Positions 2,182-57,090 of a stretch of DNA of 64,000 nucleotides are shown one piece after another; within the stretch, counting starts at the first letter, position 1; every line of letters starts with the position of its first letter. The DNA is from Bacilli bacterium. Lineage in GTDB: Bacteria; Bacillota_I; Bacilli_A; RF39; UBA660. The stretch lies in contig CAADYO010000009.1 of the NCBI GenBank assembly GCA_900753325.1, positions 2,333 to 66,332 on the forward strand, in the 5' to 3' direction. The notes under the pieces were generated by a model. The model did no database searches, was not told the origin of the DNA, and worked only from the letters and a program-made list of their open reading frames with translations. Made by a program: the position numbers and the translations under genes.

Positions 2182-2352
2182 ACCTCTTACACCTCACATT
2201 TCTACCATTGTCTTCTTGGTGATTTTATTCTAGCAAAAATAAAGCGCATTTTGACATTACTTCCGTAACTTGTATCTGTACGGACATTAATTGTTGAAAA
2301 TCCTCTTTTTTCGACAAAATTCGAGTTTTTTATATTTAAAAAATACTTTATA

Positions 2353-2389
2353 TAGATTAAAAATTTAAAATAAATTTTTAATCTTATAA
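2353..2389 (+). promoter_or_regulatory. Candidate agrBD promoter region with a 13-bp inverted repeat abutting the -10
   Basis: AGATTAAAAATTT-aaaat-AAATTTTTAATCT (2353-2383) is a perfect 13-bp inverted repeat. It is immediately followed by TATAAT (2384-2389), about 20 nt upstream of the agrB ATG. All-AT composition lowers its significance. Confidence 0.3.
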
Positions 2390-2408
2390 TATAGTTGTGA
2401 GGTGAAAT

Positions 2409-3005
2409 ATGAAAAAAGCATTTCTAGAGTCATCTTTAAGTTTTATTCAAAATTATAAAGATTTTTCTGAACATGATATTGATAAGTTACGATATGGCTT
2501 GGAAGGCATTTATCTAACAATTGAAAAACTTGTAGTGATTGTTGCTGTTAGTTTATTACTGGGTATATTAAAAGAAGTTGTTATAACTTTGGTTTTGTTT
2601 AATATCATTCGTTTTACTGGATTTGGTTTCCATGCCGAAAAAAGTATTCAATGCTTATTTATTTCATTATTTCAATTTGTCTTTGTTCCATATATTTTTA
2701 TTAGCTTACATATATCTAAATATGTTATGTTAGCTATTTGTGGAATTTGTATTATTAGTTACATATTATTTGCTCCTGCTGATACTATTAAAAGACCATT
2801 ACCAAATAAAAGAAAAAGAACCATTCGCAAATGGGCAACTGTTTTGACTGGTATTATCTATACATTAATAATAGCGTTTTTCAATTCATTTTTAACACCA
2901 TTGTTATTAAGTTCATTAATCATTGAAGCTATTGTTATTAATCCTTTACTTTATATGGCATTTAATCAACCATATAATAATTATAGGAACTACGTTCAGG
3001 CTTAA
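2409..3005 (+). CDS. agrB: AgrB-family accessory gene regulator protein B (AgrD-processing membrane cysteine endopeptidase)
   Basis: 198 aa polytopic membrane protein. GFGFHAEKSIQCLFIS places His and Cys 7 residues apart, as the catalytic H77/C84 pair of staphylococcal AgrB. It is followed by an AgrD-like peptide gene and flanked by an AgrC/AgrA-like two-component pair. Confidence 0.8.
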   Translation: MKKAFLESSLSFIQNYKDFSEHDIDKLRYGLEGIYLTIEKLVVIVAVSLLLGILKEVVITLVLFNIIRFTGFGFHAEKSIQCLFISLFQFVFVPYIFISLHISKYVMLAICGICIISYILFAPADTIKRPLPNKRKRTIRKWATVLTGIIYTLIIAFFNSFLTPLLLSSLIIEAIVINPLLYMAFNQPYNNYRNYVQA

Positions 3006-3050
3006 AATATCTAATATTTTAGCATAAATTAAAAAAGGAGGACAAATATT

Positions 3051-3173
3051 TTGAAAAGTAAAATCGCGTATTTACTATCAGCAATCGCAATGTTAGCTAC
3101 AGGAGCAGCTAGTTTAGGATGTATTTGGTTTCTTGTTGATGAACCTAAAGCTATGAAAAGTCTTTGTGATTAA
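3051..3173 (+). CDS. agrD: AgrD-like autoinducing-peptide precursor (40 codons, TTG start)
   Basis: Not in the ORF track (shorter than 60 aa). RBS AAAAAGGAGGA lies 7 nt upstream of TTG 3051. Translation: MKSKIAYLLSAIAMLATGAASLGCIWFLVDEPKAMKSLCD. It has an N-terminal amphipathic leader, a Cys followed by four hydrophobic residues (CIWFL, the thiolactone-ring geometry of staphylococcal AIPs), then an acidic D-E-P-K tail like the conserved AgrD C-terminal recognition motif. It lies directly after agrB. Confidence 0.7.
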   Translation: MKSKIAYLLSAIAMLATGAASLGCIWFLVDEPKAMKSLCD

Positions 3174-3176
3174 TTA

Positions 3177-3203
3177 AAAAGTGTCCTATTTAGACACTTT
3201 TTT
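3177..3203. terminator. Bidirectional intrinsic terminator between convergent agrBD and agrAC
   Basis: AAAAGTGTC-ctattta-GACACTTTT is a perfect 9-bp stem with A-run before and T-run after. It sits between the agrD stop (3173) and the agrC stop (3186). Confidence 0.65.
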
Positions 3204-4487
3204 CTTTATTGTAATTTCTTGAATATAATATTTGTCAATTACTTCTTGCCTTTGACTTAGCCAGGGATTTTCAGAAATTAGTTTAGAAGCAAAGTACAAA
3301 CCGTTACCATGCCCTGCACCTTTTGAGGAAACACCTTTCTTATTTCTTTCATTAAAGTTCTTAGTTTTTTTAAAAGTATTGGAGAAAACAAAAGTTACAT
3401 GATCTTTTATCTCATAAACTTCAACAAGAACTTTCTTTTTTCTTGTTTCACGAGCAGCTTCAATAGCGTTATCAAAATAAATGCCAATCAGTTGACATAA
3501 TATCTTAACATCTTTTTCAGGTAGTTTTGATAACAGCGAATGCAATTCTAGACTTACATCAACAGTTAGGTCTATTTTATTCTTTTGAGCAATGGCAGCT
3601 TTATAGTACATTAAGCCTTTGATTCCACCTTTAGGTAGTGATTTAAGTTGATGAACTACCTCGCCTTCTATATTAATACTATCTTCTAATATGTCATCAA
3701 TCTTATCTTTTACTTTCTTTTCAGAGGTAAGGCAGCGTAATACGGCTAATTGATTTTTGTACTCATGACGATTTAATTGTTCTTTTTCAATCCAATCCTC
3801 AAAGTTTTGAACATATGTAAACAAATTCTCATATTCTGAATTTAATTTTTCATAATTATTTTTACCCTTTATAAAAAAGTATGATAATAAAAAGAAAATT
3901 ATCATTATCGTAATATTTACATAATAATTTGATTCCCCGGCATTTACCATTGATACGTTTTGTCCTAATGAACTCAATCCAATAATTAGCAAAACCACAA
4001 ATAATATATTTGAAACCGATTTATTTCTCGAAATACTATTGTAGAAATTTTGTAACTGACGGAGAATAAGCTTTACTTTCAATGTAATCATGCCAAATAT
4101 TGCGACTAGAATATTGCTTAATATATATAAGTATCCAGTTGAGCGAATTTGTTTTAATGTAAAACATTTCATTAATAAAAATCCACTCATTAAATCACCA
4201 AATATTGTAAGCATCATTACTATTCCACAGGCTATAAGTGATTCTTCAACTTTTAGGTTAAACATTTCTTTATAAACAATAATTTGTAGTGCAAAAATTG
4301 CAATTGTTCCAATTCCTGCATATTCCTTTTTTGATATAAATATTGTTGCTAAGCATAATACTATAATCTGAATAATGGTTTTCGGGCTCAACACCTTTAT
4401 TTCACGATTTGTTATTTTTTCTATTACAAAAATCCCAAATATTGTCATTATCAATGCACATATTAATCTAGCGCAAACCTCTAACAT
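3186..4487 (-). CDS. agrC: AgrC-like membrane sensor histidine kinase (HPK10 family)
   Basis: 433 aa. The N-terminal about 200 aa is polytopic membrane sensor. H-box NRHEYKNQLAVL matches AgrC RHDYxN. The C-terminus has the GHKL ATPase (GAGHGNGLYFASKLI). It overlaps the upstream LytTR regulator by 20 nt. Confidence 0.8.
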   Translation of the reverse strand: MLEVCARLICALIMTIFGIFVIEKITNREIKVLSPKTIIQIIVLCLATIFISKKEYAGIGTIAIFALQIIVYKEMFNLKVEESLIACGIVMMLTIFGDLMSGFLLMKCFTLKQIRSTGYLYILSNILVAIFGMITLKVKLILRQLQNFYNSISRNKSVSNILFVVLLIIGLSSLGQNVSMVNAGESNYYVNITIMIIFFLLSYFFIKGKNNYEKLNSEYENLFTYVQNFEDWIEKEQLNRHEYKNQLAVLRCLTSEKKVKDKIDDILEDSINIEGEVVHQLKSLPKGGIKGLMYYKAAIAQKNKIDLTVDVSLELHSLLSKLPEKDVKILCQLIGIYFDNAIEAARETRKKKVLVEVYEIKDHVTFVFSNTFKKTKNFNERNKKGVSSKGAGHGNGLYFASKLISENPWLSQRQEVIDKYYIQEITIKKKVSK

Positions 4488-5199
4488 ATCTTTCTAACTC
4501 CTTTCTCTTTTCTCTAGCTACGGCTTCTAGCTTTTCATTGTTTTTAAAAGTTATTACATTTAACTTAGTATCATAATGTTCTACTTGTTCAACATTTACA
4601 TATAGGCTTCTACTACATTTTATAAAACGCTTATCTAATTCTTTAGCAATTGTACTTAAACTACCTGGCATATGATAATTTCCATTAATCGTTTTAATCA
4701 TACTTATCTTTGAGTCTTGAACTTTTTCAATATAAAGGATGTGTCTCAGTTCAATATTATATGAAACATTATGATAATTATACTTTATACTTTTAAACCT
4801 TTTATCATAATGCTTCATACATATTTGAAGGGCTTCCCTTAGTCTTTTTTCACAATTATCTAGTTTATTAATAAAGTCAACTAACATCAATCTTTTTCCT
4901 AGTGCTTCGTATTTAAATTCTGAGTATGCTGTTATTATCATTATCATTGATACCCAATCATCAAATTCTTCTCTTATTCTCCTTGCGGCATCTATACCTG
5001 AACCATTGGTTGTTTTTATATCTAGTAGATATATTTTAAAATCTTTTTCACTTTTTACAAACTCTTCCCATTTGTCTGTGTAGCCTCTGAATCTATATAT
5101 CTTATACTCTGCATCATTACTCATCATAAATTTATCAATTTCGCTTATATATTTCTTGGCTAAAATATCTTCATCTTCACATATTACAAAATTAATCAT
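4468..5199 (-). CDS. agrA: AgrA-like response regulator (receiver + LytTR DNA-binding domain)
   Basis: 243 aa. N-terminal receiver (MINFVICEDEDIL...LLDIKT). The C-terminal 100 aa have LytTR-like composition. It is translationally coupled to the histidine kinase. Confidence 0.75.
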   Translation of the reverse strand: MINFVICEDEDILAKKYISEIDKFMMSNDAEYKIYRFRGYTDKWEEFVKSEKDFKIYLLDIKTTNGSGIDAARRIREEFDDWVSMIMIITAYSEFKYEALGKRLMLVDFINKLDNCEKRLREALQICMKHYDKRFKSIKYNYHNVSYNIELRHILYIEKVQDSKISMIKTINGNYHMPGSLSTIAKELDKRFIKCSRSLYVNVEQVEHYDTKLNVITFKNNEKLEAVAREKRKELERYVRGLR

Positions 5200-5237
5200 T
5201 TTAACTCCTTATTTCCATATTTTTCCAGTTAATCAAG

Positions 5238-5268
5238 TTAAGTAAAAAGAGTACTATTACTTAGTACT
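5238..5268 (-). terminator. Intrinsic terminator downstream of tagO-like gene
   Basis: Minus-strand GGAGTACTAAGTAATAGTACTCTTTTTAC: a 9-bp stem followed by T-run. Confidence 0.5.
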
Positions 5269-5278
5269 CCTTTGTAAA

Positions 5279-9257: not shown

Positions 9258-9317
9258 ACTATCTCTCCTTCCGCCATGACAACACTTGTCATAGTAATTA
9301 AATGCGTTATTAGTATA

Positions 9318-10061
9318 TCAGCTATTTTGAATTGGGTCAAGTTTTTTTGATATTTTATCAATGATTTCTACTGATATTGCTTGATATCCATAACGATTTG
9401 GATAAATACTTTGTTTTCTAGAACGATAACTTTTGTTATTTTTAAATATAGAATATGTATCAATATAAATTACATCTTTATTTTTTCTGAAAATATCATT
9501 TAACTTTATTATGCCTTTATTTTGTGGGCTATTATTATCATAAATATTATAATAACCTATTACATATATATCATATTGATAGTATTTTTTTATTTCAATT
9601 ATCAATTCTTTAAAAGACTTTTCAATATTGTTTATTATTATATCAATATTATTATTTGTAACATTATCACTTATACTTAATTGATATAGTAGATCGTTTA
9701 AACCGATTGACAATGTTAGAATTGTACTTTCTCGTAATGTTTGTCTTATATTTAACTCATGATTGTTTAAATTTATTTTTTTATTAGTTCCTATCATTTC
9801 TTTTAAACTGGTTATGGACATAGTTTCCTCTGAAAATGATTTTATATATTTATTCAAATAATTATTTTTTTGTAGATAATCTTTTACATAATCACTATAA
9901 CCATAATCTATTTGTCCATAGGAGTCTTTTCCTAGAGCAAAACCATCTCCTAATGAAAGATAACTTTGATTATTTTGATTGTTTATTTTGAATATTAAAA
10001 ATATTAAAATTATTACTAATATAGTAATTATTAATTTATAATGTTTTTTTAGGAACTTCAT
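9318..10061 (-). CDS. SGNH/GDSL-like hydrolase-fold lipoprotein (block I Ser replaced by Gly; possibly non-catalytic)
   Basis: 247 aa with N-terminal TM/signal. LSLGDGFALG resembles GDSL block I but has G instead of the nucleophilic S. GLNDL resembles block III GxND. Confidence 0.4.
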   Translation of the reverse strand: MKFLKKHYKLIITILVIILIFLIFKINNQNNQSYLSLGDGFALGKDSYGQIDYGYSDYVKDYLQKNNYLNKYIKSFSEETMSITSLKEMIGTNKKINLNNHELNIRQTLRESTILTLSIGLNDLLYQLSISDNVTNNNIDIIINNIEKSFKELIIEIKKYYQYDIYVIGYYNIYDNNSPQNKGIIKLNDIFRKNKDVIYIDTYSIFKNNKSYRSRKQSIYPNRYGYQAISVEIIDKISKKLDPIQNS

Positions 10062-10096
10062 ATGGCCTCCAAATAAAAAGAAATATAACTATTAAA

Positions 10097-11350
10097 TTAT
10101 ATTTCTTTTATTTGTATTTTAGCACCTACTTCAGATAATTTTTCAACTATATCTTCATAACCTCTCAATATATGTTCAGCATTTGTTATTACTGTTTTTC
10201 CTTCGGCTTTTAAGCCTGCTGCAACCATAGCAGCTCCGGCTCTTAAGTCTGTAGCAACCACTTGACAACCTGTTAATTTTGTTGGACCTAATATTGTTGC
10301 GGTTTGATTTTTTACAGTAACATCAGCGCCTAACTCTTTTAGATATGGAATATGCATAAATCTATTTTCCCAAATTGTTTCAATTACTTTTGACTTTCCT
10401 GCACATTGTGTTAAAAGTACAGTAAACGGCTGTTGAAGGTCCGTTGGAAAACCTGGATATACAGCTGTTTTTATTGTGGTAGACTTATATTTGTCTTGGC
10501 TATTTATTATTACGTAGTCTGAACCCAACTCTAGATTTACACCAATTTCTTCTAATTTTGAAAGAAGGGCATCTAGGTGTTCTGGAATAATATTATCAAT
10601 TTTTAGTGGAGCACCAATTAAAGCACCAATTATAATATAGGTTCCAGCTTCTATACGATCCGGTATTACTTCGTGAAAGCATTGATGGAGATAATCTACT
10701 CCTTCTATTTTTATAGTTGATGTACCAGCTCCTGTAATTTTTGCTCCCATATTATTTAGGAAAGTTGCGACATTTACAATTTCTGGCTCTTTAGCAGCAT
10801 TATCGATAATTGTTTTACCTTTAGCTTTAACAGCTGCTAACATAATATTTATAGTTGCTCCAACTGATGCGATATCTAAATAAATATTTGCTCCTTTTAA
10901 TTCTTTAGCCTCTACTGTATACTTGTTCTTATCAACTGTTACAGTAGCACCTAAAGCTTCAAAACCTTTTAAGTGTAAGTCTATTGGCCTTGCACCTATT
11001 GAACAACCTCCTGGAAAATACATTACGGCTTTTCCATATTTTCCAAGTAGTGCTCCCATAAAGTAGTATGATGCTCTTAGCTTTTTAGAAAACTGTTCTG
11101 TTATTTCAATGTTTTTCATATTTGCTGGGTTAATTATTATGCTTTCACTAGCTCTTTTTATATCAACATTTAGTGTTTTTAAAATTGCACATAAATCATT
11201 GGTATCTGTTATTTCTGGGACATTACAAATCGTTACTTCTTCATCTGATAAGACTGCGGCCGGTATAAGGGCAACTGTTGCATTTTTTGCTCCGGATACT
11301 CTTATTGATCCAGTTAATTTGTGTCCTCCATCAATTTCGATAATTTTCAT
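10097..11350 (-). CDS. murA: UDP-N-acetylglucosamine 1-carboxyvinyltransferase MurA
   Basis: 417 aa; MKIIEIDGGHKLTGSIRVSGAKNATVALIPAAVL is full-length EPT-fold. Confidence 0.9.
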   Translation of the reverse strand: MKIIEIDGGHKLTGSIRVSGAKNATVALIPAAVLSDEEVTICNVPEITDTNDLCAILKTLNVDIKRASESIIINPANMKNIEITEQFSKKLRASYYFMGALLGKYGKAVMYFPGGCSIGARPIDLHLKGFEALGATVTVDKNKYTVEAKELKGANIYLDIASVGATINIMLAAVKAKGKTIIDNAAKEPEIVNVATFLNNMGAKITGAGTSTIKIEGVDYLHQCFHEVIPDRIEAGTYIIIGALIGAPLKIDNIIPEHLDALLSKLEEIGVNLELGSDYVIINSQDKYKSTTIKTAVYPGFPTDLQQPFTVLLTQCAGKSKVIETIWENRFMHIPYLKELGADVTVKNQTATILGPTKLTGCQVVATDLRAGAAMVAAGLKAEGKTVITNAEHILRGYEDIVEKLSEVGAKIQIKEI

Positions 11351-44787: not shown

Positions 44788-45402
44788 TTAATCTTCTTTA
44801 GGTTTAATTACTACGTAACGGTTTGGCTCCTCGCCTTCACTTTCAGTATATACTGTTTTACTATTAGTTAAAGCATTATGAATAATTCTTCTTTCGTATG
44901 AATTCATTGAGTCTAATTTTGCTTCTACTTTTGTATTTGCTACTTCTCTAGCAATTCTTCTTGCTAGTGATTCTAGGGACTTTTCTCTTTTTTCTTTGTA
45001 AGAATTGATGTCAATTATAAATTTGAAGTTTCTTCCTAATTCGTTAAGTAAGTGCTGACTTGTTAGTATTGATAATGCTTTTAAATTTTTTCCATTTTTT
45101 CCTATTAGTAGTCCATCATTATCTGAATAAATTGTATATGTTGGTATTTCTTCTTTATTTTTGATTTCAATATTTGCTGTAAAGCCAAGGTTTTTTAGTA
45201 ACTTATTTAAATACTCTTTAATATATTTTACAACTTCTCTTTTTTCTATGACTTCTATTTCTACCTTTTTACTTTTAAATAGCCCACCTTTTATTTCTTC
45301 TAGTTCTTTTATTATTAGGTTATCTTTTGTTTCTTGTAAATCTATTGTTGCATTTGAAATTGCTTCCTCTTTTGTTTTTCCAGTATATTTATGCTTTTCC
45401 AT
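44788..45402 (-). CDS. jag: Jag/KhpB RNA-binding protein (KH + R3H domains)
   Basis: 204 aa; C-terminal R3H (SMNSYERRIIHNAL). Confidence 0.85.
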   Translation of the reverse strand: MEKHKYTGKTKEEAISNATIDLQETKDNLIIKELEEIKGGLFKSKKVEIEVIEKREVVKYIKEYLNKLLKNLGFTANIEIKNKEEIPTYTIYSDNDGLLIGKNGKNLKALSILTSQHLLNELGRNFKFIIDINSYKEKREKSLESLARRIAREVANTKVEAKLDSMNSYERRIIHNALTNSKTVYTESEGEEPNRYVVIKPKED

Positions 45403-46333
45403 TTACTTCTTTACTCCTTTTAACAATAATATTTTGAACTATAGTGAATACATTTGATGTTACCCAGTATATACCTAAGCCTGATGGCATAAATATTCCT
45501 GTTACTACAAACATAACTGTCATCATAGTTGGCATCATCTTCATTGTTGGATCTGACATATTAGCTGATGAGTTCATTTTTAATGAATAATAGGTCGTTC
45601 CAGCTATTAAAATTATTAAAATTCCGTAAGCTAACCAGTTATTTGTAAAAATACCAACTGATGGTGTTGTTCCTAATTGTAATGTTAAAAATTTGTCTTC
45701 AAATATTGATGGTGTTCTTTGAACTGCTTCAAAGAAAGCTATAAACAATGGTAATTGTAAGAATGAAAATAAGCATCCAGACATTGGATTGATATTGTGT
45801 TTCTTGTATATCATCATCATTTCTTGATTTTGTTTTAACATTGACTCTTGATCTGTTTTATTTTGATATTTTTTCTTTAATCTATCAAGTTCTGGTTGTG
45901 CTTGTTTTATTAATTCTGATTGCATAGCTGTCTTTTTTGTTACTGGATAAGCTATTAATCTTATTATTAATGTAAGAATTATTAATGATATTGCATAATT
46001 TCCAACTGTCTTACCAAAAAATATTAGAACAAAGGCTAATGGTTTTACAAAGAATGCAGTCCATAGTCCTTCATATTTACCTGATGTAATTTTAAAGTTT
46101 TCGCATTTTGGTAATTTATCTATATTTACTTTATTTTTCTTATATAATTCTCTTGTTTTCTCATTTGTTGGTTGACAAATAATATTTTTTGTTAAATTTT
46201 GTCCAGTTACTTCGTTTCTTACAGGTTTATTATTTTTATCTGTTAGTGATGTTGTACAGCCTGTTGTGATTAGTAATAATAATACTATTAAAATTATTTT
46301 AATTTTATTTGCTCTACTCTTTTTTTGCTTCAT
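45389..46333 (-). CDS. yidC: Membrane protein insertase YidC/SpoIIIJ (lipoprotein type)
   Basis: 314 aa; lipobox LLITTGC; 5-TM YidC core. Confidence 0.85.
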   Translation of the reverse strand: MKQKKSRANKIKIILIVLLLLITTGCTTSLTDKNNKPVRNEVTGQNLTKNIICQPTNEKTRELYKKNKVNIDKLPKCENFKITSGKYEGLWTAFFVKPLAFVLIFFGKTVGNYAISLIILTLIIRLIAYPVTKKTAMQSELIKQAQPELDRLKKKYQNKTDQESMLKQNQEMMMIYKKHNINPMSGCLFSFLQLPLFIAFFEAVQRTPSIFEDKFLTLQLGTTPSVGIFTNNWLAYGILIILIAGTTYYSLKMNSSANMSDPTMKMMPTMMTVMFVVTGIFMPSGLGIYWVTSNVFTIVQNIIVKRSKEVNGKA

Positions 46334-46334
46334 T

Positions 46335-46679
46335 CTATATATCCTTTCCTATATTATTAATGAGTGCAACATAGTCTTTTTCCAGTTCTTGGTATGTTTT
46401 ATTTTTCGCACTTCCTCTTAATATTATAATATAATCTTTTTTATTTATATAGTCTTTTTTTAAATTATCAATAATGGCACGTATTTTTCTTTTATATTTA
46501 TTACGATATACAGCATTTCCTAACTTTTTCCCTACGGAAATTCCATAACGATTATATGGTAAATTACTTGCTTGGTAATAGATGATAAAGCTTTTATTTT
46601 TAACAATTTTGCCTGTTTTGATTATTTTTTCAAAGTCTCTGGCACTTTTTACTATATATAATTTACGCATATAGTTCAC
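46335..46679 (-). CDS. rnpA: RNase P protein component
   Basis: 114 aa basic protein with RNR-like motif (ILRGSAKN); between rpmH and yidC. Confidence 0.85.
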   Translation of the reverse strand: MNYMRKLYIVKSARDFEKIIKTGKIVKNKSFIIYYQASNLPYNRYGISVGKKLGNAVYRNKYKRKIRAIIDNLKKDYINKKDYIIILRGSAKNKTYQELEKDYVALINNIGKDI

Positions 46680-46724
46680 CTACCTTAAATTGTAAGAGTA
46701 AAAAACCACTGTTGATGCAGCGGC

Positions 46725-46847
46725 TTATTTGCAAAGTAATTTACGCCCTTTGCGACGACGACGATTTAATATATTTGTTTTTTTGCGTGCAAAAAAGCCT
46801 AGTTTCTTTGCTTTTTTACGGTTGTTTGGTTGATATGTTCTTTTCAT
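46725..46847 (-). CDS. rpmH: 50S ribosomal protein L34
   Basis: True start is the internal MKRTYQPNNRKKAKKLGFFARKK...; the upstream 20 codons of the track ORF are spurious. Confidence 0.85.
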   Translation of the reverse strand: MKRTYQPNNRKKAKKLGFFARKKTNILNRRRRKGRKLLCK

Positions 46848-46934
46848 TTGCTCCACCTCCAGACATAAATCTACATTATTATAATAGTAATACTTGGAAT
46901 TTGTCAATTAAAATGTACTATTTTTGTTTTTTAA

Positions 46935-47065
46935 ACAGTTTCCACAGATATGTGGAATATTAAAATAAGGTGTGTGGAATAAAAATTGTGGAAAATGTGG
47001 AAAAGTTATTTTTATTATTTTATATCAATAGTTTTATTTGTGGAAAAAATTGTGGATTGTGTGTT
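46935..47065. promoter_or_regulatory. oriC part 1: DnaA-box cluster and dnaA promoter region
   Basis: At least six 9-mers within 0-2 mismatches of TTATCCACA/TGTGGATAA (TTTCCACAG, TGTGGAATA x2, TGTGGAAAA x3, TGTGGATTG) in 130 bp upstream of dnaA. Confidence 0.7.
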
Positions 47066-47155
47066 GAAAAAAATTTTTACAATAAAATTGTTTATTTTTT
47101 TCACAATTTAATGTACACTAATCGTAGTTTATTTATCTTGTGGGGAGATGGTGGA

Positions 47156-48523
47156 ATGAATGTCGATATTATATGGACCAAATTTTTGGACCAAATAAAA
47201 GATGAACTTACTTCATTATCTTTCGATACTTGGTTTGCTGATACTACGTTGCATAGATTGGAAAATGGTAAAGCATATATAATTGTTCCAATGCCAATTC
47301 ATAAGAAACATTTAATTGATAATTATTCTGATCTCATTGTAAAAACGTTAAATGAGATTACAGGTACAAATTTTGAATTGGTATTGATTTTAAAAGAAGA
47401 AATAGAGGATGTTTTGCCTAAAAAAGTGGAAATTGAACCTGAGTTAGAAGGTGTTCCTAATAATAAAATTCAGTCTAATTTAAATGTTAAATATACTTTT
47501 GATAATTTTATAGTCGGTAATAGTAACAAATTTGCTCATGCAGCAGCTCTTTCTGTGGCTGAAAATCCTGGCAAAATGTATAATCCTTTATTTATATATG
47601 GAAATAGCGGATTAGGTAAAACTCATTTAATGCACGCAATTGGTAATTATATATTAGAAAATACTAATAAAAAAGTTTTATATGTTACGTCTGATCAATT
47701 TACACAGGATTTTATAAAGGTTAATAAAAAAGATGATTCTGGCACTAATTTTAATTATATTGATTTTTTTAAGAATAAATATCGCAATATTGATGTTCTT
47801 ATTATTGATGATATTCAATTTTTAGGTGGAGCTACTAAGACTCAACAGGAATTTTTCCACACCTTTAATTCTTTATATAATGATAGTAAACAAATAATTA
47901 TTTCCTCTGATAGATCTCCAGATGATTTAAAATTACTGGAAGATCGTCTAAGAACTAGATTTTGTTGGGGATTAACTGTTAACATATTTCCACCTGATTT
48001 TTCTTTAAGAATGCAGATTTTAAAGAAAAAAATAATTGGTGGTAATTTTGAAAAAGAAATATCTGAAGATGTTATTGAGTATATTGCATCTAATATTGGC
48101 ACTGATGTTAGACAATTGGAAGGTTCAATAACAAGGCTTATTGCTTATTCAACAATAATGGGTGGAGCAGAAATAACACTTGATTTAGCAATAGAGGCAC
48201 TTAAGGACTTTATTAGCAAGGGAATGAGCGAAAAAAATGACATTCAAAGAATTCAAAAAATTGTATCCGAATATTTTCAAATATCAGTTGAGGATATTAG
48301 AAGTAAAAAGCGGAGCTCTAATATTTCTTTTCCAAGACAAATTGCTATGTACCTGTGTAGGAATATGACAAATGAATCATTTCCTAAGATAGGAACAGAA
48401 TTTGGTGGAAAAGATCATTCAACAGTAATGCATTCAGTGGAAAAGATTGAAAATGAGATAAAAGTTAATAAAGATTTAGCTAATATAATAGAAAAGTTGA
48501 AAAAGGATATAGGTATTGTGTAA
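47156..48523 (+). CDS. dnaA: Chromosomal replication initiator DnaA
   Basis: 455 aa from ATG 47156 (RBS GGAGATGG). The track ORF starts 62 codons upstream and runs through the DnaA-box region. AAA+ Walker A GNSGLGKTHL; domain IV HTH. Confidence 0.9.
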   Translation: MNVDIIWTKFLDQIKDELTSLSFDTWFADTTLHRLENGKAYIIVPMPIHKKHLIDNYSDLIVKTLNEITGTNFELVLILKEEIEDVLPKKVEIEPELEGVPNNKIQSNLNVKYTFDNFIVGNSNKFAHAAALSVAENPGKMYNPLFIYGNSGLGKTHLMHAIGNYILENTNKKVLYVTSDQFTQDFIKVNKKDDSGTNFNYIDFFKNKYRNIDVLIIDDIQFLGGATKTQQEFFHTFNSLYNDSKQIIISSDRSPDDLKLLEDRLRTRFCWGLTVNIFPPDFSLRMQILKKKIIGGNFEKEISEDVIEYIASNIGTDVRQLEGSITRLIAYSTIMGGAEITLDLAIEALKDFISKGMSEKNDIQRIQKIVSEYFQISVEDIRSKKRSSNISFPRQIAMYLCRNMTNESFPKIGTEFGGKDHSTVMHSVEKIENEIKVNKDLANIIEKLKKDIGIV

Positions 48524-48539
48524 AACTTTAAGTTATTGA

Positions 48540-48654
48540 ATTTTTATCCACAAGTAAATGTTAACAAAAATGAATGATAAATAAAGAAAAAAATAAGTTT
48601 TCAACTTTTTCCACAGTAATAATATAAATAATAAAAGAAAGAAGGAATATATAT
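48540..48654. promoter_or_regulatory. oriC part 2: DnaA boxes plus AT-rich unwinding region between dnaA and dnaN
   Basis: Perfect TTATCCACA at 48544-48552 and TTTTCCACA near 48606. The stretch between them is more than 85% AT. Confidence 0.6.
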
Positions 48655-49782
48655 ATGAAATTTACAATTAAGAAAGATTTATTATTAGATGCTTTAAATA
48701 AAGTTGCTAGAGCAATTTCTACAAAAAACTTAATTCCAGTATTGGCAGGTGTTAAGTTTGATTTAAAAAAGAAAAAATTAACATTAACAGCAAGTGATAA
48801 TGATATTACAATTCAAACTGTTATTGAAAGTAATAATGAGGATGACTTTAAAATAGAAAATGAAGGAAGTATTATTATACAAGGTAAGTATATTCTAGAT
48901 ATTGTTAGAAAATTACCAGATAAATATATTAATATAGAAGTAGTTGATGAATTAAAAATATTGATTTACACAGAAAATAGTGAATTTAATTTAAATGGAA
49001 TTAGTGAAAGTGAATATCCTAATATAGGACTTGAAGAAAGTAAGAAAAAAGTTAGTATTAATGCTGGAATTTTTAAAAATATTGTTAATCAAACTGCTTT
49101 TGCTTCTTCAAATGAAGAAAGTAAACCTGTTCTTACGGGAATTAATTTTAATATAGTAGGGGATGTTTTAGAGTGTAATTCAACAGATTCTTATCGTTTA
49201 GCTAGAAAAATAGTTAAATTAGATAAGGAAAGTGAAGAAAATTATAATATTGTAATTCCAAGTCATAATATAGTAGAATTTTGTAAGATTTTAACTGATG
49301 ATGATGAAACTGTTGAATTACATATATTTAATAATAAAATATTATTTAAAACTGGTAATTTAAAATTTGAATCAAGGTTAATTAATGGTACATATCCTAA
49401 TACTTCAAATTTATTACCAGATGATTCTTTATTAGTAGTTAGTACAAATCTTAACGATTTTTATGATGTTATTGATCGTGTAAGTATTTTAACTAGCGAT
49501 AAAGAAAAAAATATTGTTACTTTAGAAACTGTTGATGATGTATTGATTCTTAGAAGTAGTTCTGCTGAGATTGGTAGAGTTGAAGAAAAAATGCCAATTA
49601 CCAAAAATAATAATGAAAATATTAAAATTTCATTTAGTGCAAAATACATGATGGAAGCATTAAAAAGTTTTTCCACAGAAACTGTTGATATTCATTTTGT
49701 AGGTGAAATTAAACCAATTTTAATTAAATCTAGTGAAGATACAAGTCTTACTCAATTAGTTTTACCTATAAGAACTTATTAA
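48655..49782 (+). CDS. dnaN: DNA polymerase III beta sliding clamp
   Basis: 375 aa; MKFTIKKDLLLDALNKVARAIS. Confidence 0.9.
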   Translation: MKFTIKKDLLLDALNKVARAISTKNLIPVLAGVKFDLKKKKLTLTASDNDITIQTVIESNNEDDFKIENEGSIIIQGKYILDIVRKLPDKYINIEVVDELKILIYTENSEFNLNGISESEYPNIGLEESKKKVSINAGIFKNIVNQTAFASSNEESKPVLTGINFNIVGDVLECNSTDSYRLARKIVKLDKESEENYNIVIPSHNIVEFCKILTDDDETVELHIFNNKILFKTGNLKFESRLINGTYPNTSNLLPDDSLLVVSTNLNDFYDVIDRVSILTSDKEKNIVTLETVDDVLILRSSSAEIGRVEEKMPITKNNNENIKISFSAKYMMEALKSFSTETVDIHFVGEIKPILIKSSEDTSLTQLVLPIRTY

Positions 49783-56963: not shown

Positions 56964-56992
56964 TTTACAAAAAGTTACATATATATTAGAAT
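56964..56992 (+). promoter_or_regulatory. Sigma-A promoter of ffs (SRP RNA)
   Basis: -35 TTTACA (56964-56969), 17-bp spacer, -10 TAGAAT (56987-56992); transcription start about 6-8 nt downstream. Confidence 0.6.
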
Positions 56993-56998
56993 AATATC

Positions 56999-57079
56999 GT
57001 GCAATGAAAGCGGTGGAAACAGGTCAGGATTGGAAAATAGCAGCCTTAACATTAAACTTTCATGTGCACTTTTTATTTT
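56999..57079 (+). ncRNA. ffs: Small (4.5S-type) signal recognition particle RNA
   Basis: ACAGGUCAGG-AUU-GGAA-AAU-AGCAGCC reproduces the universally conserved SRP RNA domain IV (helix 8): symmetric loop AGG / AGCAGCC closed by a 3-bp stem and GGAA tetraloop. The terminal stem GUGCAAUGAAAG / CUUUCAUGUGCAC closes the hairpin. A U-tract (TTTTTATTTT, 57070-57079) follows. The ORF-track N-terminus of the tadA ORF (57004) overlaps this RNA and is spurious. Confidence 0.65.
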
Positions 57080-57090
57080 GGGTGATTATT

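Follow-up and report, generated by a model that had tools for sequence, protein, structure and literature searches.

What does an agr quorum-sensing system look like when its genes do not form a single operon? The question is raised by a 64,000-nucleotide stretch of a Bacilli bacterium genome (contig CAADYO010000009.1, positions 2,333–66,332; hereafter the window), in which the list of open reading frames (ORFs) and the sequence together place four agr-type genes on two strands: agrB and agrD on the plus strand, agrA and agrC on the minus strand, in two units that run toward each other. To our knowledge, work on agr signaling has been confined almost entirely to cultured pathogens and a small number of clostridia. 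The locus described here is, in all likelihood, a working agr-type cyclic-peptide quorum-sensing system that is split into two convergent transcription units.

A convergent agr locus in a fixed genomic position

The initial annotation had described this locus as a complete but non-canonical agr system in which the response regulator gene precedes the kinase gene, and this description holds. The regulator gene agrA comes first and overlaps agrC by 20 nt, agrD starts 45 nt beyond the end of agrB, and the stop codons of agrD and agrC lie 12 nt apart (Table 1). With the units on opposite strands, a bidirectional terminator between them and the regulator first, the canonical one-transcript order B-D-C-A is absent, and the single P2-type read-through transcript is, as had been argued, impossible. 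There is likewise no divergent RNAIII-type effector RNA: the 227-bp spacer upstream of agrB is taken up by two candidate promoters, the gene that diverges from agrB is the cold-shock protein gene csp, and Rfam at its gathering threshold placed no RNA family within the agr locus.

The same arrangement recurs across a large set of relatives. An AgrB profile retrieved 80 species-representative loci from uncultured gut Bacilli whose records bear names such as 'Mycoplasma sp. CAG:877', Candidatus Faecimonas (Bacilli incertae sedis according to NCBI) and 'uncultured Tenericutes', and tblastn with the window proteins gave one order throughout: hpf← csp← agrB→ agrD→ ←agrC ←agrA ←tagO ←mreB. The agrBD and agrAC units, earlier noted as convergent in the window, are convergent in 69 of these 80 loci and otherwise arranged in none; nine contigs end ahead of agrC, and two loci gave no AgrC match despite ∼0.8–1.1 kb of contig after agrB. 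Divergence of csp from agrB was found in 79 loci, and the remaining contig ends before csp.

The neighbors hpf, csp, a GT4 TagO-like gene and mreB were recognized by Pfam, and secA was seen on identical metagenome contigs. While AgrB identity to the window protein falls to as little as 39 per cent, Csp, TagO and MreB stay at 57–96 per cent in nearly all loci (MreB is lower in two), and given this divergence of AgrB in an unchanging gene order the locus has long resided in a core-genome slot and is inherited vertically. It is not an island, and the claim that it sits among core genes is borne out by its occurrence at the same csp–tagO place in 80 species. An identical AgrC protein recurs in human-gut metagenomes of several independent samples, on contigs that fall in 32 blocks of the collection (23 of these contigs were read). 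Individual loci show departures in content: L069 (8080–8209) has no agrA between agrC and tagO, L008 (6765–8168) carries an insert of ∼1.4 kb between agrD and agrC, and L015 (8119–9434) one of ∼1.3 kb between agrC and agrA.

Conserved features of AgrB, AgrC and AgrA

All four proteins have the domains and the conserved residues that an agr gene set should have. The best NCBIfam model for AgrB is AgrB-like, and NCBI names the homologues of the clade 'accessory gene regulator B family protein'. Its H75 and C82 are invariant in 22 homologues, at least 95 per cent conserved in 81 homologues, and align with H77 and C84 of Staphylococcus aureus AgrB, so that the His/Cys pair does stand at the staphylococcal spacing first ascribed to it. 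A PDB sequence search with AgrB returned no solved relative and only chance matches to PsbH.

The kinase has the composition of an AgrC-like HPK10 protein, namely a polytopic sensor, an H-box histidine and a HATPase_c_5 domain. Some six hydrophobic segments span residues 1–208, and the H-box NRHEYKNQL, read correctly in the initial annotation, occupies residues 239–247. Among 59 orthologues H241 is at least 95 per cent conserved, as are N340 and the G-box (G390, G394 and G396). The protein is collinear with the staphylococcal AgrC NCBIfam model over residues 20–423, and among solved structures the closest is that of the S. aureus AgrC kinase module (PDB 6e52, E 8e-9). Its score of 46 bits is nonetheless far under the equivalog cut-off of 500 bits, which makes it an AgrC-like kinase and not an orthologue of staphylococcal AgrC.

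The regulator joins a receiver (REC) domain with a phospho-acceptor aspartate to a LytTR DNA-binding domain, as expected of an AgrA-like protein. The REC match itself scores 23.3 bits, under the Pfam cut-off of 30.2; D9, D60 and K112 are at least 95 per cent conserved among orthologues and align with S. aureus AgrA. The best NCBIfam model is quorum_RR_AgrA and the best PDB matches are AgrA LytTR domains.

The AgrD peptide

The 40-codon agrD reported on the plus strand has its own ribosome-binding site, a Shine-Dalgarno AGGAGG at 3036–3041. Its product, MKSKIAYLLSAIAMLATGAASLG-C-IWFLV-DEP-KAMKSLCD, has the features of an AgrD precursor: a position directly after agrB, a hydrophobic leader, a ring cysteine and an acidic C-terminal tail. 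In 76 loci the interval from agrB to agrC contains an AgrD-like ORF, which begins with ATG, TTG or GTG at the same position, and the position of the start codon, the ribosome-binding site and the reading frame are kept across relatives. In all 76 orthologues a cysteine stands exactly six residues ahead of (D/E/G)EP (Cys-X5-[DEG]EP). The X5 segment is hydrophobic, differs in 73 of the 76 and has tryptophan at its second position in 55. TIGR04223 is matched by 26 of 50 orthologues, with a best E of 2.8e-7. In the AgrD of L084 (6652–6765) the residue six positions ahead of DEP is Thr and not Cys, and its product may thus be a lactone.

The ring is most likely six-membered, C-I-W-F-L-V, since the Cys-X5-DEP spacing is invariant and six-membered rings have been predicted for AgrD of the Clostridium acetobutylicum type (PMC10301443). 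The spacing of S. aureus AgrD (C-DFIM-DE) is one residue shorter, and the same Cys-X5-EEP spacing is found in an AgrD encoded on a C. tagluense plasmid (AC-IGYGL-EEP).

Ahead of the invariant cysteine the leader (3051–3122 in the window, with orthologues in L006–L085) consists of MKK, a hydrophobic stretch and A-S-x-G, and resembles a signal peptide of the lipoprotein type, in which the ring cysteine would be residue +1; the NCBIfam model NF038029 'LP_plasma lipoprotein' is matched by 2 of 50 orthologues. A leader of this kind raises the question of which peptidase cuts it, and of whether the product is tail-less. From Gless 2021 and Molloy 2021, as cited in PMC11953309, a leader cut directly ahead of the cysteine is predicted to lead to an S-to-N acyl shift and a homodetic cyclopeptide, and the AgrD product here may follow that route if its leader is cut there. 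In none of the metagenome assemblies with this locus (L001–L005 are identical contigs) was agrD called as a gene, and catalogues built on those calls therefore miss the peptide.

Co-diversification of peptide and receptor

The fraction of orthologues that share the majority residue of AgrC is 0.39–0.55 over residues 1–200 and 0.56–0.84 over most of the kinase half. Across 88 species pairs in which TagO and MreB average 94 per cent identity, the AgrC sensor half is 41 per cent identical and the AgrD X5 segment 33 per cent, against 85 per cent for the kinase half, 76 per cent for AgrB and 79 per cent for AgrA. With housekeeping identity controlled for, the partial correlation with X5 identity is 0.25 for the sensor half and 0.15 for the kinase half. 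This pattern of a pheromone and its receptor diversifying together is, in the comparison of these sequences, the signature of the staphylococcal agr specificity groups.

Terminators and the candidate agrAC promoter

The claim of one shared bidirectional terminator fares well: a hairpin at the agrD/agrC junction, overlapping the last codons of agrC, folds on both strands, with energies of −10.1 kcal/mol (plus) and −12.0 kcal/mol (minus) and z scores of −2.9 and −4.9 relative to shuffled sequence. Most related loci have the same succession of A-run, hairpin and T-run at this junction. The stem differs by species, and thus it is the structure and not the sequence that is conserved.

At its other end the agrAC unit follows directly on the terminator of the tagO-like gene. 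A hairpin and T-run occupy the equivalent place 3′ of tagO in relatives, and in the window this hairpin may shield agrAC from tagO read-through. Some 17 nt separate it from the sequence TGGAAAAATATGGAAA, our candidate agrAC promoter. The TGGAAAAATATGGAAA/TGGAAAAATATGGTAAAAT motif occurs at this position in most of 60 upstream regions, is unique in the window, and is kept even where AgrA is only ∼32–35 per cent identical to the window protein. No LytTR repeats were found upstream of agrA in these relatives. Because a LytTR site of 30–40 bp has no space between the tagO terminator and agrA, agrAC is probably read from a constitutive promoter of its own. A promoter consensus scan gave 32 matches in comparison with 25.6 ± 6 in shuffled sequence, which is no excess, and our promoter calls consequently rest on conservation.

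Table 1. Genes and candidate regulatory elements of the agr locus; coordinates are those of the window.
Feature	Position	Strand	Description
agrB	2409–3005	+	198 aa; PF04647, E 2.8e-28; membrane cysteine endopeptidase and cyclase acting on AgrD
agrD	3051–3173	+	40 aa; TTG start; TIGR04223, E 0.0045
agrC	3186–4487	−	433 aa; HATPase_c_5, E 4e-9; HPK10-type polytopic sensor kinase
agrA	4468–5199	−	243 aa; REC + LytTR, LytTR E 1.5e-13; first gene of agrAC unit
csp	1960–2181	−	73-aa cold-shock-domain protein; Pfam CSD, E 3.7e-25; divergent from agrB; candidate target of repeat boxes
Shared terminator-like hairpin	3176–3202	both	10 pairs, AAAAAGTGTC-N7-GACACTTTTT; A-run on one side, T-run on the other
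tagO-like gene terminator hairpin	5245–5273	−	−13.3 kcal/mol; after tagO stop codon
Candidate agrAC promoter	5212–5227	−	TGGAAAAATATGGAAA (most species TGGAAAAATATGGTAAAAT); two tandem TGnTAAAAT-like extended −10 elements
Candidate csp extended −10	2227–2235	−	TGCTAGAAT on minus strand; conserved block in 72 spacers
Candidate LytTR (AgrA) box 1	2262–2276		TCCGTAACTTGTATC; clade consensus TCC[G/T]T[A/T]AAnTTGTAT
Candidate LytTR (AgrA) box 2	2283–2297		GACATTAATTGTTGA; second imperfect copy, 21-bp period
TTCGAC-N4-TTCGAG tandem	2310–2325	+	10-bp period; unique in window
Perfect 14-bp inverted repeat	2354–2384		AGATTAAAAATTTA / TAAATTTTTAATCT; AT-rich; abuts agrB −10
Candidate agrB −10	2385–2390	+	TATAAT; conserved ATAAT block in 72 spacers

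Elements of the csp–agrB spacer

The initial annotation had proposed a search for conserved LytTR direct repeats upstream of both units. Conserved repeats with a 21–22-bp period do occur in the csp–agrB spacer, but they are placed for csp and not for agrB, and upstream of agrA there is no room for them. The spacer measures 226–257 bp in most loci, and its blocks were defined in an alignment of 72 spacers. An offset scan from box 1 over these spacers gives a mean of 5.9 of 12 matches at +21 and 4.7 at +22, in comparison with ∼3.9 elsewhere. The box sequences differ between species, both copies changing together; the pair is identical at 12 of 16 positions in L008, L039, L045 and L046, and is a perfect 13-nt repeat in L084. 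Read on the minus strand, box 1 is ACAAGTTAC(GG) and box 2 is ACAATTAAT, with ACAAGTTAAGG and CCAGTTAAGG in relatives, sequences that differ little from ACAGTTAAG, the AgrA box of S. aureus. These repeats are the most likely binding site of AgrA~P.

Their geometry points toward csp. The gap between the csp extended −10 and the box 1 block is 25–26 nt in 54 of ∼70 loci, in which the csp 5′ untranslated region varies from 38 to 72 nt. In the window the proximal box reads in the direction of csp, with 31–32 nt between its core and the csp −10, and the two box centers are ∼49 and ∼70 nt upstream of the point where csp is predicted to start. In the S. aureus record (L090) we measured 31 nt (P2) and 33 nt (P3) from the proximal box to the −10 hexamer, and the reading direction of the boxes there is toward the promoter under their control (our measurement on L090; PMC4227749).

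Nearer to agrB are two further elements. A TTCGAC-N4-TTCGA(C/G) tandem is present in 48 of 80 loci, mostly 96–116 nt upstream of the agrB ATG (one at 124), and matches only four other times in the ∼0.7 Mb that the loci comprise (1.4 Mb over the two strands). Its distance to the agrB −10 is 74–76 nt in 33 of those 48 loci, and its distance to box 1 is fixed. AgrA may use the tandem as a second site, for which the 10-bp phasing would be unusual, or a different regulator may bind there. L018 has three copies of the unit. A reading of the tandem as a CodY box was dropped as too weak (∼10 of 15 positions matching AATTTTCWGAAAATT by eye). The inverted repeat that abuts the agrB −10 is kept in the closest relatives and in L016, and in L011 the two arms have changed in step; its role may be that of a repressor operator or of a 5′ hairpin. 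No recognizable −35 accompanies the agrB −10.

A position-weight matrix built from the clade boxes found nothing near the score of the csp–agrB pair elsewhere in the 64-kb window, and hence no further members of a regulon there. A comparison of the repeat unit of two Clostridium plasmids that share the convergent layout, TTCGATACAATT, with TTCGACAAAATT of the window gave 10 of 12 matches, and its reverse complement gave 11 of 13 with box 2 of a relative; by our estimate chance alone would give about one match of this kind, and we take the similarity only as a hint.

These placements bear on whether the system induces itself at all. AgrA~P may act on the csp promoter only, with agrBD driven independently, for instance through other regulators bound to the TTCGAC tandem and the palindrome, and with peptide output tracking growth or nutrient state. 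Such signaling without classical autoinduction would fit the rigid spacing of the box pair to the csp −10, its orientation toward csp, and the finding that the 72-spacer alignment holds no LytTR-like pair 30–33 nt upstream of the agrB −10; the S. aureus P2–P3 spacer, too, is known to contain sites of further regulators, for example SarA (PMC4227749). On the two plasmids, however, 21-bp repeats sit directly on the agrB promoter, which makes agrBD autoinduction the norm of the family. The fairly fixed distance of the TTCGAC element to the agrB −10 likewise speaks against this account, as does the TTCGA that the element shares with the plasmid repeat unit, a similarity that is not statistically significant. 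We regard signaling without autoinduction as possible, though not probable.

Genomic setting

The window also contains the chromosomal replication origin, at 44788–49782, where jag and yidC (minus) are followed by dnaA and dnaN (plus) with a junction at ∼46.4–46.9 kb; GC skew, computed across 1–64000, goes from about −0.1 to +0.3 at 46–48 kb. The agr locus lies ∼43 kb from oriC, with agrBD head-on to replication and agrAC, csp and tagO co-directional with it. Elsewhere in the window Rfam matched an L31 ribosomal-protein leader (9265–9294, minus) and a small SRP RNA (56990–57085, plus), and GC content falls to ∼0.20 in 9300–10200, across a GDSL-lipase-like gene (9318–10061).

Proposed mechanism and alternatives

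The reading that we favor is that of a cyclic-peptide system whose signal and receptor units are separately transcribed. AgrB, through His75 and Cys82, would take off the acidic C-terminal tail of the 40-aa AgrD and close a thiolactone from Cys24 onto the new C-terminus, and a second protease would presumably cut away the signal-peptide-like leader. The agrA–agrC unit would be read from its own extended −10 promoter and translationally coupled. AgrC would bind the peptide through its hypervariable membrane half, autophosphorylate on His241 and pass the phosphate to Asp60 of AgrA. As the two units end at one bidirectional terminator they share no transcript. AgrA~P would then occupy the 21-bp-period repeats, which by their placement and direction would suit activation of csp from its divergent promoter. 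Feedback on agrBD might come from the boxes at a distance, from the TTCGAC tandem, or might not exist.

Several observations weigh against parts of this account. The window AgrD scores 17.1 bits (E 0.0045) with TIGR04223, slightly under the cut-off of 19, and its ring may instead be five-membered, C-I-W-F-L; ring size (five or six) and tail length lie beyond what sequence can settle. All promoters and operators were placed by conservation, and the spacers compared are phylogenetically related, which makes the repeat statistics overstate independence. The window has a weak version of the box pair, its two copies agreeing at 7 of 16 positions. The boxes are ∼100–135 nt upstream of the predicted agrB start, and no canonical agrBD autoinduction site was found. 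A scan of related loci with the S. aureus AgrA consensus ([TA][AC][CA]GTTN[AG][TG], pairs 20–22 bp apart) was abandoned as non-discriminating, because in AT-rich DNA the background is ∼0.75 pairs per 230 nt.

A bolder extension, which we consider rather unlikely, is that csp is the direct agr output in the whole lineage. AgrA~P on the boxes would switch on an RNA chaperone that replaces RNAIII as the post-transcriptional effector, with signal production and reception uncoupled in the convergent units. Leakage through the weak shared terminator could, in addition, make each unit antisense to the other. The basis of this proposal is geometry and conservation only.

There is some reason to ask whether AgrBD and the LytTR two-component system are partners at all, and not simply neighbors, with the kinase sensing another signal (as in the bacteriocin-type systems ComDE or PlnBCD) and AgrD acting elsewhere or as a ribosomal peptide with no signaling role. 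C. difficile agr1, which has no kinase or regulator, uses AgrA2 of agr2 in strain R20291 (PMC4453554, PMC4992976), and the partial correlation between sensor and X5 identity is modest in the present set. Yet neither the 69 complete loci nor the unrelated Clostridium plasmids separate the four genes, the kinase aligns collinearly with AgrC and has a solved AgrC as its nearest structure, and the sensor half and the peptide are the fastest-evolving parts of a slowly evolving neighborhood, so that an accidental adjacency is very improbable. That the locus is a decaying, non-functional relic in this species is hardly credible and largely refuted: L069 lacks agrA, L008 and L015 have their inserts, and the terminator and boxes of the window are weaker than those of many relatives, but here the four ORFs are intact with every catalytic residue present, identical AgrC recurs in several independent samples, and agrD keeps its start codon, its ribosome-binding site and its frame across relatives.

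Significance

A complete agr system thus belongs, at a fixed place and by vertical inheritance, to the core genome of a large group of uncultured, small-genome gut Bacilli, nearly every species of which has its own hydrophobic, Trp-containing peptide. The resulting ∼75 natural peptide/receptor pairs offer a panel for specificity, cross-talk and interference among gut commensals, and the peptides could serve as synthetic probes for organisms so far ungrown. The operon of S. aureus becomes one among several natural wirings. If the csp link is true, a protein RNA chaperone would join the effectors of quorum sensing.

Comparison with known systems

At the protein level the locus has every feature expected of an agr system, and it departs only from the operon architecture of the staphylococci, by which the family is not defined. 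Like S. aureus agrBDCA it combines the four protein families, with an HPK10 kinase, a LytTR regulator and a hypervariable sensor half and peptide, and it shares with S. aureus ∼150–165 nt between divergent −10 elements, repeats of 21-bp period and a proximal box 31–33 nt from a −10. Unlike S. aureus, it has two convergent units in place of one operon, agrA ahead of agrC, a cold-shock protein gene where RNAIII/hld diverges, only one recognizable box pair, and Cys-X5-DEP where S. aureus AgrD has Cys-X4-DE; identity of the S. aureus agr proteins to those of the window is only 24–27 per cent.

In fsr of Enterococcus faecalis, fsrA is read from its own weak constitutive promoter and the signal genes are under separate control. 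The likeness to our locus is in a regulator gene with its own promoter, apart from the signal genes; fsr differs in that all genes are co-oriented (fsrABDC; PMC3754575), the kinase is transcribed with the signal genes, and the product is a lactone with a 9-residue ring. In agr loci of the C. acetobutylicum type signal production and reception also belong to separate units, six-membered rings are predicted, no RNAIII-like effector exists, and a neighboring protein-coding gene is the effector (PMC10301443). In contrast to the present locus, however, agrBD, agrCA and the effector form separate successive units with the kinase ahead of the regulator, and the effector is a LanM-like protein encoded downstream.

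The agr wirings described thus far comprise staphylococcal BDCA, fsrA with fsrBDC, C. difficile agr2 in the order A-C-D-B, BD-only loci, and separate agrBD and agrCA units (PMC3754575, PMC3901668, PMC10301443). We considered agr2 as a precedent and set it aside because of that order and its possible single transcript (PMC3754575). A literature search for a convergent agr locus found no paper describing one.

The layout is nevertheless not unique, and its closest counterparts have already been annotated, by PGAP. A tblastn search of PLSDB with AgrB gave as its two best matches, both at 35 per cent identity, the plasmids pCEST-001C of C. estertheticum and pCM022-183 of C. tagluense. Both have agrB→ agrD→ ←GHKL kinase ←LytTR regulator (the regulator gene leads and overlaps that of the kinase), an AgrD of the pattern C-X5-EEP...PKSLL, and no repeats upstream of agrA. 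They differ from the window in being plasmid-borne, beside radical-SAM/SPASM or ABC-transporter genes and with no core-genome slot, in having strong 21-bp tandem repeats that abut the TTGACA −35 of agrB, and in a kinase and regulator only 24–25 per cent identical to those of the window. Repeats at agrB and none at agrA support a general design in which a constitutive receptor unit is combined with a regulated signal unit. Other plasmid agr loci have the gene orders BDCA, ←A D→B→C→ and D-C-B-regulator. On pCEST-001C (L086, 863–3998) genes for radical-SAM and SPASM proteins and a 52-aa ORF divergent from agrB adjoin the agr-type locus, and on pCF007-B (L089, 6883–7982) six tandem lantibiotic genes of the gallidermin/nisin family lie beside an agr-type locus, which suggests that agr controls neighboring ribosomal peptides on those Clostridium plasmids.

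Given that the same layout and a C-X5-EEP AgrD are present on Clostridium plasmids, the convergent arrangement with a C-X5-(D/E)EP AgrD is an existing, uncharacterized agr subtype and not a new kind of system. What the present locus adds to that subtype is a fixed core position in an uncultured gut lineage, a radiation of peptides and sensors, and a LytTR-type repeat that is placed for csp and not for agrBD.

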